NCBI GenBank assembly: GCA_017517685.1
Contig: JAFWYK010000010.1
Coordinates: 66,499 to 130,498 of the forward strand
DNA: 64,000 nucleotides
Reading direction: 5' to 3'
Source of the DNA: Clostridia bacterium
Lineage (GTDB): Bacteria > Bacillota > Clostridia > TANB77 > CAG-508
Below, piece by piece: positions 35,325 to 63,435 of this stretch. The notes under the pieces were generated by a model. The model was not told the DNA's origin and searched no databases. It saw nothing but the letters and a program-made list of their open reading frames with translations. Made by a program: the position numbers and the translations under genes. How positions within the stretch are numbered: position 1 is the stretch's first letter; each line of letters begins with the position of its first letter.

Positions 35325-36039
35325 ATGCGAAAGTATAATGAAGATCTTGTTAGACAAGCTAAGATGGGTGATAACGATAAAATGATGCAAATATTAGAAG
35401 AGAATAGACGGTTTAATATGGAATACGGTAAGAAGATTTGCATATAGAGGTTATGATAAAGAAGATTTATATCAAATTGCATGTATTGGATTCATAGAGG
35501 CTGTGAAAAGGTTTGATTTTACTTTTAATGTTGAATTGTCTACATACTCAGTTCAATACATGCTAGGTGAAATAAAGAAATTTTTAAGGGATGATGGAAT
35601 GATAAAAGTTAGTAGAGATGTGAAAGAATTGGGGATAAAGATAAAAGAACTTGAAAGAATTTATTTAGTAAAAACAGGTGAAAGTTTGGATATAAATAGA
35701 ATATCAAAAATTTTGGAAATGCCTAAAGAAACGATTGTTTATGCAAAAGAAGCGTCCAAAACAGTTGAATCTATTAATGAAAAAGTAGGAGATGAAGGTA
35801 GCGAACTTATTGATATGTTAGCCTCTAAAGATGATGAGCAATCCAAAATTGTAGATAGAATAGCGGTTTTTGATTTGATAGAAAAATTAGATTTTAGAGA
35901 AAAAGAAATAATAAAGTTAAGATATTTTAAAGATAAGACTCAAACACAAGTTGCGAAAATATTGGGGATTTCTCAAGTTCATGTTTCAAGGATAGAGAAG
36001 AAAATATTAAATGATTTTAAAGATAAACTTATTGTTTAA
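35325..36039 (+). pseudogene. sigF: sporulation sigma factor SigF, frameshifted as sequenced
   Basis: ATG 35325 (SD aaaggagga) reads MRKYNEDLVRQAKMGDNDKMMQILEENRR, then hits TAG at 35445. The conserved region 2 (LIWNTVRRFAYRGYDKEDLYQIACIGFIEAVKRFD...) continues in the +1 frame from 35413. Removing one T from TTT 35412-35414 restores a 237-aa SigF. Confidence 0.8.
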
Positions 36040-44429: not shown

Positions 44430-47400
44430 ATGCCAGACTTCGTTCATTTACATGTCCATAGTGAATTTAGTTTGTTAGATGGAATGTGCAGAATTAAAGA
44501 TTTACCAAAAAGAGCAAAAGAGTTAGGAATGAAAGCTATTGCCCTTACTGATCATGGGGTTATGTATGGTGCGGTAAATTTTTATAAAGAATGTGTAAAA
44601 GAAGGGATTAAGCCTATTATTGGTTGTGAAGTATATGTAGCACCAAGAAGTCGAATGGATAAAGAGGCTGGAATCGATGATAATTATGCACATTTAATTT
44701 TGCTTGCCAAAAATAAAACTGGTTATCAAAATTTAATTAAACTTGTTTCTTTAAGTTTTACTGATGGTTATTATTACAAACCAAGAATAGATTTAGAAAT
44801 TTTAGAAAAATATCATGAAGGTTTGATTTGTTTAAGTGCTTGTTTAGCAGGTACAATAAATCAAGCAATATTAAAAGATGATTTAGAAGAAGCAAAGAAG
44901 ATTGCTTTATGGCATAAAAATGTATTTGGTGAAGATTATTATTTAGAGATTCAAAATAATGGTCTACCAGAGCAAGTAATGGTTAATCAAAAGTTAATAA
45001 TGTTATCAAGAGAACTTGATATTCCTTTAGTTGCAACTAATGATGCCCATTATTTAAAACAAGAAGATTGTTATAATCATGAAATTTTACTTTGTATACA
45101 AACAGCAAAGAAAATGACTGATGAAGATAGAATGAAATTTGCTACTGATGAATTTTATATTAAATCACCAGAAGAAATGGCAGATTATTTTTCAAGTGTT
45201 CCAGAAGCTATTGAAAATACAGTTAAGATTGCAGATAAATGTAATTTTGATTTTGAATTTGGTGTAACAAAACTTCCAAACTATGATGTACCAGAAGAAT
45301 TTGAAACTCATGAAGATTACTTTAGATATTTAGTATCAAATGGTCTAGAAAAAAGATATGGTAAAGATTATGGGGAAGATGTAAAAACTAGAGCTGAATA
45401 TGAACTTGGAATAATTTCAAGAATGGGATATATAGATTATTATCTTATTGTTTGGGATTATATTAATTATGCAAAATCTATTGGAATTCCTGTAGGACCA
45501 GGACGTGGTTCTGGAGCAGGATCAATTGTTGCATATGCTATAGGAATAACTGATATAGATCCACTTAAATATAACTTGCTTTTTGAAAGATTCTTAAATC
45601 CAGATAGAATTAGTATGCCTGACTTTGACGTTGACTTTTCAGATGAAAGAAGACAAGAAGTTATAGACTATGTTGCAAGAAAATATGGAAGAGATCACGT
45701 ATCTCAAATTATTACTTTTGGTACAATGTCAGCAAAAAGCGTTATAAGAGATGTTGGTAGAGTATTAGATGTTCCATATAGTGATGTAGATAAAATTGCA
45801 AAAATGATTCCGTTTGAAGTACATATGACTTTAGATAAAGCGTTGGAACAAAATAGAGAACTTAGAGAACAATATGAAAATGATGAAGTAACTAAAAGAA
45901 TTATTGACATAGCAAGAGGCTTAGAAGGCATGCCAAGAAATGCTTCAACACATGCTTGTGGTGTTGTTATAACAAAAGATCCAGTAGATACATATGTACC
46001 ACTTTGTACAAATGATGGTAATGTTGTAGCTCAATATACAATGGTGCTTTTAGAAGAACTTGGACTTTTAAAGATGGACTTTTTAGGTTTAAGAACATTA
46101 AGTGTTATTGCAAACTGTTTAGAACTTGTTAAAAAGAATAGGGGAATAGACATTGTATTTGATGAAAAAATGGATGACCCTGAAGTATATAGATTATGGC
46201 AAGAAGGAAAGACTTTCGGTATATTCCAATTTGAAAGTACAGGTATTACAAATTTTATGAAAGAATTAAAACCTGACTGCTTTGAAGATATTGTTGCTGG
46301 TGTTTCACTTTATCGTCCGGGACCTATGGATCAAATCCCAAGATATATTAAAGGAAAATTAAATCCAGGTCATAATGAATATACACATCAAAGTTTAGAG
46401 CCTATACTAAACGTTACATATGGATGTATGGTATATCAAGAACAAGTTATGCAAATTGTTAGAGACTTAGCTGGTTATTCACTTGGTAGAGCTGACCTTG
46501 TTAGAAGAGCAATGGGTAAAAAGAAGTTAGATGTAATGGCTAAAGAAAGAGAAATTTTTATTAATGGACAAGTTAATGAAGATGGAACTATCGATGTACC
46601 AGGATGTGTAAGAAACGGTATAGATGCTCAATCAGCTGATAAGATATTCGATGAGATGAGCGAATTTGCAAAATATGCATTTAATAAATCACATGCTGCT
46701 GCATATGCAGTTGTATCATATAGAACTGCATACTTAAAAGCTTATTATAAAGAAGAATTAATGGCTGCTACTTTAAATAGTTTTTTAGGAAACTTAGATA
46801 AAATTCCTGTGTATATTCAAGATTGTAAGGATATGGGAATAGAAATATTAAATCCAAATATTAATGAATCAGAAACTAAATTTACTGTTGTTGATAATAA
46901 AATTAGATTTGGTTTGGGTTCTGTTAAAAATGTTGGTGTAGCTGTAATAGATTCAATTGTTGCAGAAAGAGAAAAGAATGGACCGTTTGAAAGTTTTACA
47001 TCATTCTGCGAAAGAGTTAAAGACGAAGCTGTTAATAAAAAATGTATTGAAAGCTTAATTAAAGCTGGAGCTTTTGATGATTTTGGAAAAACAAGAGCAA
47101 CACTTCTTGCTTCATTTGAAGGGATTGTTGAAAGTATAAATAACGAGAATAAAAACAAAATTGAAAATCAAGTTTCGATGTTTGATTTAATGGAAGATAT
47201 TGATGATAATATTGAAGCACAAAAATATACTTTTATTGAAAAAGAAGAGATGGAACAACGTGAACTTTTAAGTTTAGAAAAAGAGATGCTTGGTGTATAT
47301 ATATCAGGACATCCTTTAGATAAATTTAAATCAGCAATTGAGAAACATGCTAATATATCAACTTTAGATATGATAAAGATTGATGAAGAAGTTCAAGAGT

Positions 47401-47933
47401 TTGGTGAATCAAAAGAATATAAAGATGGACAAAATATAAAATTTGTAGGTATTATTTCAAAAGTAAATAAAAAGTTTACTAGAAAAAATACTACAATGGC
47501 ATTTGTTAATATTGAAGATTTTTATGGAACTGCAGAATTTGTTGTTTTTGATAGTGTATATACAAAATCAGGCCATATAATTGTTGAAGATAATATTGTG
47601 CTTGTAGAGGGTAGACTTAGCATGAGAGAAGATGAACCGGTTAAGGTTGTTGTATCAAATATTAAAGAGTTTACAGAAGATATGCCTATTACAAATAATG
47701 TTCAAAAGATTAATCAAGTAAAATCACTTAAGATTAATATTACTGGATTAACAGAAGAACAAAAATCAAGATTAAGAGGTGCTATAAAGTTTTTTTCCGG
47801 AGAGAAGTATAATGTAAAATTGTTTGTTGTTGATAGTGGTGAACTAAAACCATGTGGCGCATTATATTTAACAGATAAGGTAAAAGCTGTATTTGAAAGT
47901 ATTGTTGGAAAAGAAAACGTTAAACTTGACTAA
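44430..47933 (+). CDS. dnaE: DNA polymerase III subunit alpha (DnaE)
   Basis: PHP domain FVHLHVHSEFSLLDG, GPGRGSGAGS, and palm/fingers motifs. 1167 aa. Confidence 0.95.
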   Translation: MPDFVHLHVHSEFSLLDGMCRIKDLPKRAKELGMKAIALTDHGVMYGAVNFYKECVKEGIKPIIGCEVYVAPRSRMDKEAGIDDNYAHLILLAKNKTGYQNLIKLVSLSFTDGYYYKPRIDLEILEKYHEGLICLSACLAGTINQAILKDDLEEAKKIALWHKNVFGEDYYLEIQNNGLPEQVMVNQKLIMLSRELDIPLVATNDAHYLKQEDCYNHEILLCIQTAKKMTDEDRMKFATDEFYIKSPEEMADYFSSVPEAIENTVKIADKCNFDFEFGVTKLPNYDVPEEFETHEDYFRYLVSNGLEKRYGKDYGEDVKTRAEYELGIISRMGYIDYYLIVWDYINYAKSIGIPVGPGRGSGAGSIVAYAIGITDIDPLKYNLLFERFLNPDRISMPDFDVDFSDERRQEVIDYVARKYGRDHVSQIITFGTMSAKSVIRDVGRVLDVPYSDVDKIAKMIPFEVHMTLDKALEQNRELREQYENDEVTKRIIDIARGLEGMPRNASTHACGVVITKDPVDTYVPLCTNDGNVVAQYTMVLLEELGLLKMDFLGLRTLSVIANCLELVKKNRGIDIVFDEKMDDPEVYRLWQEGKTFGIFQFESTGITNFMKELKPDCFEDIVAGVSLYRPGPMDQIPRYIKGKLNPGHNEYTHQSLEPILNVTYGCMVYQEQVMQIVRDLAGYSLGRADLVRRAMGKKKLDVMAKEREIFINGQVNEDGTIDVPGCVRNGIDAQSADKIFDEMSEFAKYAFNKSHAAAYAVVSYRTAYLKAYYKEELMAATLNSFLGNLDKIPVYIQDCKDMGIEILNPNINESETKFTVVDNKIRFGLGSVKNVGVAVIDSIVAEREKNGPFESFTSFCERVKDEAVNKKCIESLIKAGAFDDFGKTRATLLASFEGIVESINNENKNKIENQVSMFDLMEDIDDNIEAQKYTFIEKEEMEQRELLSLEKEMLGVYISGHPLDKFKSAIEKHANISTLDMIKIDEEVQEFGESKEYKDGQNIKFVGIISKVNKKFTRKNTTMAFVNIEDFYGTAEFVVFDSVYTKSGHIIVEDNIVLVEGRLSMREDEPVKVVVSNIKEFTEDMPITNNVQKINQVKSLKINITGLTEEQKSRLRGAIKFFSGEKYNVKLFVVDSGELKPCGALYLTDKVKAVFESIVGKENVKLD

Positions 47934-60381: not shown

Positions 60382-60444
60382 GTTTTGAAAAAAGTTCTTG
60401 ATTTTTAAACTAAATTATGTTAATATAGTTACATATTTAAATAC

Positions 60445-60690
60445 GAAGAAAAAGAGGAGTAAGTAAAAAACTACTAGCAAGAGAAAAGAAGTGATGCGCT
60501 GAGAGCTTCTTATAGAAAGATTTACTGAAAGTAGCTTTGGAGTAGATATACCGAAAATAACTTTAAGTATATCCGTCTAAGTAACGTTAAAAACTTAAAT
60601 GAGATGATTGCTAATAAGCAATTAATTAAGGTGGTACCGTGATTTTGATAAATCGCCCTTATACATTTTAGTGTATAAGGGCTTTTTTGT
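60445..60690 (+). promoter_or_regulatory. T-box riboswitch leader, valine specifier
   Basis: Conserved T-box AATTAAGGTGGTACCGTG (60624-60641). Terminator gcccttatac...gtataagggc followed by T6 (60655-60686). GTA codon in the GAAAGTAGC specifier context (60531-60533). Upstream of valS. Confidence 0.85.
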
Positions 60691-60756
60691 TTTTATATGC
60701 AAAAAAGTCCTTTGGCTAAAAATCTTAAATTTTAAAATTTAAAGGGAGGAAATTTT

Positions 60757-63435
60757 ATGAACGAAAAACACAAATTAAACGATAAGTTTGATCCAAAAGA
60801 ATTTGAAGACAGATTGTACAGAGATTGGGAAACAAAAGGTTATTTTAGACCATCAGATGATAAAACAAAAGAACCTTACTGTATAATGATGCCACCACCA
60901 AATGTAACTGGTAAATTACATATGGGGCATGCACTTGATGATACAATTCAAGATATCCTAATCCGTTATAAAAGAATGAGAGGATATAGAACATTATGGC
61001 TTCCAGGAACAGACCATGCAGCTATATCTACAGAAATGAAAGTCGTTCAAAAATTAAAAGCTGAAGGTAAATCAAAAGAAGATTTAGGAAGAGATGGATT
61101 CTTAGAAGAAGCTTGGGCATGGACAAAAGAATATGGTGGAATTATTCAAAAACAACAAAGAAAATTAGGATGTTCTTGTGATTGGGAAAGAAATAGATTT
61201 ACTCTTGATGAAGGAATGTCTGATGCAGTTTTAGAACAATTCATTAAACTTTATGAAAAAGGATTAATTTATAAAGGAAAAAGAATGGTTAACTGGTGTA
61301 CAAGTTGTAATACATCAATTTCTGATGCTGAAGTAGAATATAAATAAGAACCATCACATTTATGGCATATTAGATATAAAATTACAGGTAGCGATGATAA
61401 ATATATCGAAGTTGCAACAACAAGACCAGAAACAATGCTTGGAGATACAGCTGTTGCTGTTCATCCAGATGATGAAAGATATAAAGATTTAGTTGGAAAA
61501 ACATGTATACTTCCAATTATGAATAAAGAGATTCCAATTATAGCAGATGATTTTGTTGAAATGGAATTTGGAACAGGTTGTGTTAAAATAACACCAGCTC
61601 ATGATATGAATGACTATCAAGCTGGTTTAAGACATAATTTAGAATTTATTGAAGTATTTGATAAAGAATTTAAAATGGGAGATTTAGTTCCTGAATATAA
61701 AGGAATGGATCTTAAAGAAGCAAGAATTAAAATTGTTGAAAAATTAGAAGAATTAGGTGCATTAGTAAATACTGAAGACTATACACATAATGTTGCAAAA
61801 TGTGAAAGATGTAAAAATACTATCGAACCAAAAGTTTCTGAGCAATGGTTTGTAAGTATGAAAGACTTAGCAAAAAGAGCTGCAGATAGTGTAAGAAATG
61901 GTGAAACAAGATTTGTACCACAAAGATATGAAAAACAATATTTCCATTGGCTTGATAATATACAAGATTGGTGTATATCAAGACAACTTTGGTGGGGACA
62001 TAGAATACCTGCATATTATTGTAAAGATTGTGGAGAAATTCATGTTGCAAAAGCAGCACCTGAAAAATGTACAAAATGTGGAAGTACTAATTTAGTTCAA
62101 GATCCAGATACATTAGATACATGGTTTAGTTCTGCATTATGGCCATTTAGTACTTTAGGTTGGCCAAATATGACAGAAGATTATAAGGATTTCTACCCAA
62201 CACAAACATTAGTAACTGGATTTGATATTATAACATTCTGGATTTCAAGAATGATGACACAAGGATTAGAATTTACAGGAGAAGTTCCATTTAAAGATGT
62301 TCTTGTTCATGGTATCGTAAGAGATAGCCAAGGAAGAAAAATGTCAAAAACACTTGGAAATGGTATTGATCCATTAGATGTAATCGAAAAAAACGGAACT
62401 GATAGCTTAAGATTTTCACTTCTTTCTGGAACAACTATGGGTAATGATATTAGATTTATGCCAGAAAAATTAGATCAAGCTTCTAACTTTGCAAATAAAA
62501 TTTGGAATGCAGCAAAATTCATTACAATGAACTTAGCTGATGATGAAAAAGTAAGAGAATTCTGCTATGAAGTTTATGAAAAGAATAATGCATATAATCC
62601 AGATTTATTAAAAATTGAGGATAAATGGATATTAAATAAATTCGATAAATTAGTTCAAGATGTATCTAAAAACTTAGATAATTATGACTTAGGTATAGCT
62701 TTAGATAAAATTTATGGATTTATGTGGAATGAATTCTGTGACTGGTATATAGAAATGGTTAAACCAAGAATATATTCTGAAAGTGAAGAAGAAAGAGTGG
62801 CAGTAAGTGACATATTAAATCATGTATTTGGTTCATCACTTAAGCTTTTACATCCATTTATGCCATTTGTTACATCTGAAATTTATTCAAAATTAATATG
62901 CTTTGGAACAGAAGATTTAATGGTTTCTAAATGGCCAAAAATTAGAGATGAATTTGTTTTTGATAAAGAAGAAGCAATTATTGAAAAAATGAAAAAATTA
63001 ATTGTTGAAATTAGAAATATTAGAACAAAAATGAATGTTCATCCAACAAAAAAATCTAAATTATTAATTATTTCAAATTCAATCGAAAAAGAAATAAAAG
63101 AAGCAGAAGAATTCTTATTAAAACTTGGATTTGCAAATGAGATAGTAATAGTAAAAGATGAAAAAGAAGTTCCACAAAATGCTGTATCAATTGTAGTAGA
63201 TGAATTGAAAGTATTTATTCCATTTGAAGAATTAGTAGATATCGAAGAAGAAAGAAAAAGATTAGAAGGAGAAAAAGCAAAACTTGAAGCAGAAGTGCTA
63301 AGAGGTGAAAAAATGCTTTCAAATCCAGGATTTGTTAACAAAGCTCCAGAAGCAAAAGTTAATGAAGAAAAAGCTAAACTTGAAAATTATAAACAAATGC
63401 TTCAAAATGTGGAAGAAAGATTAAAATCATTATAA
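60757..63435 (+). pseudogene. valS: valine--tRNA ligase, reading frame interrupted by an in-frame TAA at 61345-61347
   Basis: [15 protein letters not shown] (HIGH) and KMSKTLGN (KMSKS) motifs. The two ORF-track pieces (60757-61347 and 61435-63435) are in the same frame. The codons between them encode conserved ValRS sequence (EPSHLWHIRYKI...ATTRPETMLGDTAVAVHP). Confidence 0.85.

Follow-up and report, generated by a model that had tools for sequence, protein, structure and literature searches.

Single-base consensus errors and minority variants give rise to apparent pseudogenes in metagenome-assembled genomes (MAGs). The gene described here, valS, which encodes valyl-tRNA synthetase (ValRS) and is interrupted by one in-frame TAA, resembles such cases in two respects: the change is an isolated substitution in a conserved, single-copy, essential gene, and independent assemblies of the same strain do not carry it. 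It differs from them in that such an origin is a probable one here, and in that the assembly holding the gene shows a low rate of differences (about 4 in 92 kb). Ochre suppressor tRNAs would be the classical route by which an essential gene such as valS survives a UAA codon; in E. coli, these suppressors are mutant forms of tRNA-Lys, tRNA-Gln and tRNA-Tyr. The genome studied here differs from those systems, as none of the tRNA genes found in it carries the UUA anticodon.

Two further systems are relevant to this locus. Split class Ia synthetases exist elsewhere, for example the two-subunit LeuRS of Aquifex aeolicus, and in valS, too, the break coincides with a domain boundary in the catalytic core. 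However, in natural split synthetases the two genes form a conserved pair, each with start signals of its own, whereas the downstream part of valS has neither a start nor a ribosome-binding site of its own, and the position of the break is unconserved. In addition, aminoacyl-tRNA synthetase genes in Firmicutes are controlled by T-box leaders (Rfam RF00230). The valS leader matches that system, being full-length with a Val specifier and a terminator; we found no difference from it, and this is ordinary regulation for valS.

We analysed a stretch of 64,000 nucleotides, here called the window, from the genome assembly G000 (1.63 Mb in 12 contigs, 28% GC, estimated 89.7% complete), which is related to uncultured Clostridia of the gut; several of these relatives carry the label Candidatus Scatovivens. 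Positions given without a contig prefix are those of the window. The valS gene lies at 60757-63435 on the plus strand and comprises 892 codons if codon 197 is counted as sense, with its own stop, TAA, at 63433-63435. Read from the ATG at 60757, the frame gives 196 residues, meets the TAA at codon 197 (61345-61347, plus strand), and then continues for 695 residues in the zero frame to the TAA at 63433-63435. The codon at 197 is GAA (Glu) in other assemblies of the species, and a G-to-T change at 61345 (C10:127843 in the coordinates of G000) makes it a stop. A preliminary description of this DNA had reported the in-frame TAA and the resumption of ValRS homology in the same frame beyond it. Both observations hold: the letters at 61321-61360 (...GAT GCT GAA GTA GAA TAT AAA TAA GAA CCA TCA CAT...) and their translation place the stop in the assembly, and the Pfam domain tRNA-synt_1 is matched on both sides of it.

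The N-terminal open reading frame (ORF; 60757-61347, plus strand, 196 aa) covers the first half of the Rossmann fold, including the HIGH motif, and breaks off on entering the CP1 editing insertion, 13 residues past the first CxxC zinc knuckle. The in-frame continuation (61348-63435, plus strand, 695 codons) holds the editing domain, the second catalytic half with KMSKS, the anticodon-binding domain and the C-terminal arm. Positions 2-181 of the tRNA-synt_1 profile fall on the N-terminal fragment and positions 184-413 on the C-terminal part, where Anticodon_1 and Val_tRNA-synt_C follow. Since both halves match one Pfam catalytic domain, this is a single gene broken by one codon, and chance is no explanation for the arrangement. 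The HIGH motif (HMGH) occupies residues 55-58 (60919-60930) and the KMSKS motif (KMSK) residues 528-531 (62338-62349). With tRNA-synt_1, both motifs, the editing insertion, Anticodon_1 and the C-terminal arm, the product is a class Ia valyl-tRNA synthetase, and the window's valS is 53-96% identical to that of its relatives. The Pfam matches and motif positions thus bear out the earlier statement that the HIGH, KMSKS, editing, anticodon-binding and C-terminal regions are intact; so does a lesion count of one for the view that the gene is not decaying.

The leader of valS was also as first described. A T-box at 60437-60663 (plus strand) matches RF00230 over the full model (1-219) with 112 bits, above the gathering score of 93 (E = 6.6e-26). 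Its specifier loop is GAA-A-GUA-G, and the specifier codon, read from the Rfam alignment, is GUA (Val), which fits the regulated gene. A terminator hairpin (GCCCTTATACA ... TGTATAAGGGC) followed by a T run is seen in the sequence at 60655-60694 (plus strand), overlapping the 3' end of the Rfam match, and a strong Shine-Dalgarno sequence, GGGAGGA, is likewise seen at 60743-60749 (plus strand), 7 nt upstream of the valS ATG.

The stop among strains, relatives and assemblies

To place the stop within the species, we compared G000 with other public assemblies. We found that position 61345 is G (GAA, Glu) in assemblies from 14 other samples of the species, reached through eight loci fetched with the 892-aa ValRS protein and seven fetched with an unrelated neighbouring gene. 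A contig from the same strain (ERZ28018841 k141_786438) differs from G000 at 2 of 22,679 bases, one of which is 61345; other strains have 101-117 differing positions across the same 22,679-bp stretch. The second difference, C10:131588, lies 1,090 bases past the window's end and is A in G000 and T in the same-strain contig; G000 alone has the A, all four loci compared having T. The A changes Ile496 to Lys (I496K) in a gene for a 657-aa KAP-family NTPase just downstream of valS. At the protein level, the intact 892-aa ValRS with Glu197 and all other residues unchanged is encoded on 11 public metagenome contigs, and a collection of about 15 billion proteins contains neither of the truncated products (196 and 666 aa). 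The strain is also carried by the public runs SRR13872444, SRR12529280 and SRR32129109 and by the samples behind ERZ28018841 and ERZ28654085. Protein look-ups with DnaK and PyrC yielded loci of other strains alone, at a divergence of about 0.5%; these served for allele polarity and natural variation and were left out of the same-strain error count. An exact 45-mer with N at the site had no match in genome_contigs or JGI metagenome_contigs, searches in which the window's own or near records were possibly left out. Judged from these sequence records, the valS stop is private to G000 and missing even from its own strain in other samples. The preliminary description had listed three possible causes, namely an error in base calling, a nonsense mutation of very recent date, and read-through; because the T is private to G000, the choice narrows to the first two.

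The wider comparison gave the same picture. Residue 197 is Glu in 79 of 80 species-level relatives (GAA in 74, GAG in 5) and Asp in the remaining one, with the frame open in all, in agreement with the earlier remark that the position is usually acidic. No stop was present in valS in any of the 30 genomes searched in the genus and order, and in the relatives aligned from those 30 genomes the site reads GAA within the context EYK-E-E. The comparison with the valS of the closest relatives, which had been proposed as a check, therefore turned up no relative that carries the stop; with GAA at the DNA level in every relative examined in it, the change to TAA is indeed a single substitution.

Within the species, the variable sites of valS comprise 31 synonymous and 4 conservative nonsynonymous changes, and the gene is under strong purifying selection. 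A decaying pseudogene was rejected on the basis of this 31:4 ratio and of the single substitution, the rest of the protein being identical to the intact form in other samples. At natural biallelic sites, 69% of changes are transitions (208:95); the G to T of the valS stop is a transversion. G-to-T changes are a signature of oxidative damage during library preparation. In this AT-rich genome, a random coding substitution creates a stop in 5.9% of cases, and the stop is TAA in 56% of these. A rare random error that happened to give TAA here would on these figures be unremarkable; it would be remarkable for a nonsense change in a single-copy valS to have been exposed to selection and to have survived.

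We also asked how accurate G000 is in general. Across about 92 kb in five regions, G000 and same-strain assemblies differ by 4 substitutions and 0 indels: G>T at 61345 (nonsense, valS), T>A at C10:131588 (I496K), T>C at C4:103401 (synonymous by our own codon reading), and a T/A difference at C1:200836, of either direction, which is intergenic. Consensus errors are rare in G000. Nonetheless, this low rate does not by itself discriminate between rare errors and real micro-diversity.

Decoding of stop codons in the genome

The preliminary description had suggested a genome search for a second valS. We ran this search and found none: the other matches in G000 were only the paralogues IleRS (C11) and LeuRS (C4), so that valS is single-copy in an assembly that is about 90% complete. 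Similarly, no second full-length valS occurs among the matches listed in 30 relatives. None of the 31 tRNAs predicted by ARAGORN has the anticodon UUA, in a set without tRNA-Ala and tRNA-Ile from a genome about 90% complete; the lack of these two tRNAs indicates that the set is incomplete.

TAA is the normal terminator in G000, ending 488 of the 641 ORFs of at least 300 aa, valS included. This stop usage excludes a reassignment of TAA and agrees with the earlier argument that wholesale reassignment is unlikely where TAA ends many genes. Because TAA is the dominant terminator, a strong ochre suppressor would be costly in G000. A genome-wide scan for in-frame stops found only two clear in-frame TAAs in conserved genes, one in valS and one in a NUDIX gene; the remaining candidates were mostly shadow ORFs on the antisense strand or neighbouring genes that share a frame.

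A single class I release factor was detected, of the RF1 type (C1:3976-5004, minus strand; PxT motif PDT, plus GGQ), and prfB was not found in G000 (about 90% complete). TGA ends only 17 of the 641 long ORFs, and the next stop follows at a median of 3 codons. Of 41 genomes in the genus, prfB scores above the curated cut-off in 26, and in several of the rest it is fragmented or carries stops. Among the relatives, G016 has the valS most like that of G000 (96% identity over the portion present in G016). The 13 kb around its prfB have no counterpart in G000; the absence of prfB may thus reflect incompleteness of the assembly.

Near the stop itself, we looked for signs of adaptation. The first in-frame ATG, GTG or TTG after the stop is the ATG at 61435, 30 codons downstream and beyond the conserved TTRPET motif, and no Shine-Dalgarno sequence for it is present in the sequence. 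The 121 nt at 61330-61450 fold with -12.5 kcal/mol (z = -0.76 against shuffled sequences), which gives no sign of RNA structure after the stop. From these and the preceding comparisons, four candidates were rejected. Slippage by +1 or -1 at AAA-TAA fails because the conserved sequence runs on in the zero frame. A programmed read-through or recoding site is contradicted by the lack of conservation of the stop (GAA, GAG or GAT in 80 of 80 relatives, G in 14 same-species samples) and by the lack of a downstream stimulatory structure. Reassignment of TAA falls to the termination counts and to the mere two interrupted conserved genes, and a split synthetase to the missing Shine-Dalgarno sequence at 61435 and to the lack of any relative with a split gene.

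Origin of the T at position 61345

Because the stop occurs in no other assembly of the species or strain, a wrong base or a short-lived, dead-end variant is the most likely explanation, not recoding. Specifically, we consider it probable (roughly 70%) that the consensus base T at 61345, in one metagenome-style assembly, is wrong or unrepresentative. It is present and private there, in a gene that is otherwise intact, single-copy and strongly constrained, and no compensating feature was found. The T could have arisen through a sequencing, assembly or polishing error, or could be a damaged-DNA or minority variant that was chosen by the assembler. The organism's real valS would then read GAA (Glu197) and encode a normal 892-aa class Ia ValRS, and the Val-specific T-box riboswitch would control transcription of this intact gene. 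Our inference is that T would not prove to be the true majority base in the source reads. For annotation, one base is no ground for calling this valS a pseudogene or a case of recoding, since the true protein of the species is the 892-aa form with Glu197.

Alternatively, the T could mark a real nonsense allele of very recent origin, dominant in the sampled population and rescued by read-through, a suppressor or a second valS. Several observations are compatible with such an allele: the assembly is accurate elsewhere, with its 4 substitutions and no indels in about 92 kb; the nearby private I496K change also alters a protein, as changes not yet filtered by selection would be expected to do; and the real in-frame TAA in the NUDIX gene indicates that nonsense alleles occur in the lineage, though that gene has an intact paralogue. 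As for the means of rescue, near-cognate read-through of UAA would yield a little full-length ValRS, and uncharged tRNA-Val would antiterminate the T-box and raise valS transcription. The T-box is intact and Val-specific, so that the feedback loop exists, and with one RF1-type class I release factor and no prfB found, UAA may be read by RF1 alone. Otherwise, an ochre suppressor tRNA or a second valS could lie in the unassembled 10% or so of the genome, as the incomplete tRNA set would allow. Yet valS is essential, and read-through of UAA in bacteria is usually far below 1%. Moreover, valS is single-copy in G000, no suppressor was among the 31 tRNAs found, an ochre suppressor that worked efficiently would cause read-through at three quarters of the genome's terminators as well, and the T is in no other assembly, the same strain included. 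We therefore judge a real and dominant nonsense allele unlikely. Its more specific version, in which a read-through trickle of ValRS is buffered by T-box feedback, perhaps aided by RF1-only termination, seems to us very improbable. If the T were real and dominant, this would be a rare natural case of an essential synthetase gene that tolerates an ochre codon; if the read-through and T-box version were true, a riboswitch feedback would naturally buffer a nonsense mutation in an essential gene. The valS T-box is relevant to the stop only in this way, as a possible amplifier if the nonsense allele is real.

The other explanations fare worse against the same data. That valS is a fresh pseudogene, with Val-tRNA charged otherwise (for example by an unbinned, divergent ValRS) or in cells already non-viable, would accord with a stop in the middle of the catalytic domain and with two other broken genes that are real in the lineage, the NUDIX gene and a split sigF; we hold it to be highly improbable, given that there is only one lesion, that every other codon matches the intact protein of other samples, and that neither G000 nor the matches listed in 30 relatives include a second full-length valS. 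The resumption of conserved coding sequence in frame past the stop, and the second in-frame TAA in the genome, would be compatible with programmed recoding, whether by an evolved read-through or by reassignment of TAA to an amino acid. However, a stop that is unconserved even within the strain effectively refutes this idea, and the 488 of 641 long ORFs that end in TAA, the only two clear interruptions of conserved genes genome-wide, the lack of a UUA anticodon among the tRNAs found and the lack of a stimulatory RNA structure leave it with almost no probability. Hardly more credible is a ValRS assembled, without a covalent link, from the 196-aa part and a restarted C-terminal part: the break does coincide with a domain boundary, where the CP1 editing insertion is entered 13 residues past the first CxxC, but no start with a Shine-Dalgarno sequence follows the stop, a start at ATG 61435 would delete the conserved TTRPET motif, and no relative has such an arrangement. 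A wrong or unrepresentative consensus base thus remains our preferred explanation for the T.

Other interrupted genes and a variable spot in dnaE

The second conserved gene with an in-frame TAA lies outside the window. It encodes a zinc-ribbon-NUDIX (MutT-like) protein (C1:193857-194435), and its stop, at C1:194121-194123, immediately precedes the NUDIX box GGLWEFPGGKIEPGES (...GKILIT*RNFKK...). In contrast to the stop in valS, this TAA is identical in three other same-strain assemblies (L043, L044 and L048), which indicates a real nonsense allele. The gene adjoins an integrase and a mobile element, and an intact NUDIX paralogue with 52% identity is located at C7:2039-2407.

Two other loci have divided reading frames. 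Within the window, sigF (35325-36039) is called as products of 40 aa and 178 aa, and the same split is called in eight other assemblies of the species; judged by this pattern of gene calls, the interruption appears to belong to the species and not to stem from an error in the assembly. Outside the window, C6:55585-59553 contains ORFs of 748 aa and 565 aa in the same frame, with one TAA between them (C6:57829-57831). The second of these (565 aa) has no obvious ribosome-binding site, and no homologue of the pair was found in 20 relatives. This locus is either one interrupted gene or two genes.

A different type of irregularity was seen in dnaE (44430-47933 of the window). Its exact 1167-aa product is not on record anywhere, and within this gene, at 46701-46763, lie the ends of three Logan contigs from the same strain that match the window at 100% identity. 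Next to these contig ends is site 46718, at which none of the ten other-strain loci compared agrees with the window. Together, these observations suggest that dnaE has a polymorphic or hard-to-assemble spot near 46701-46763.
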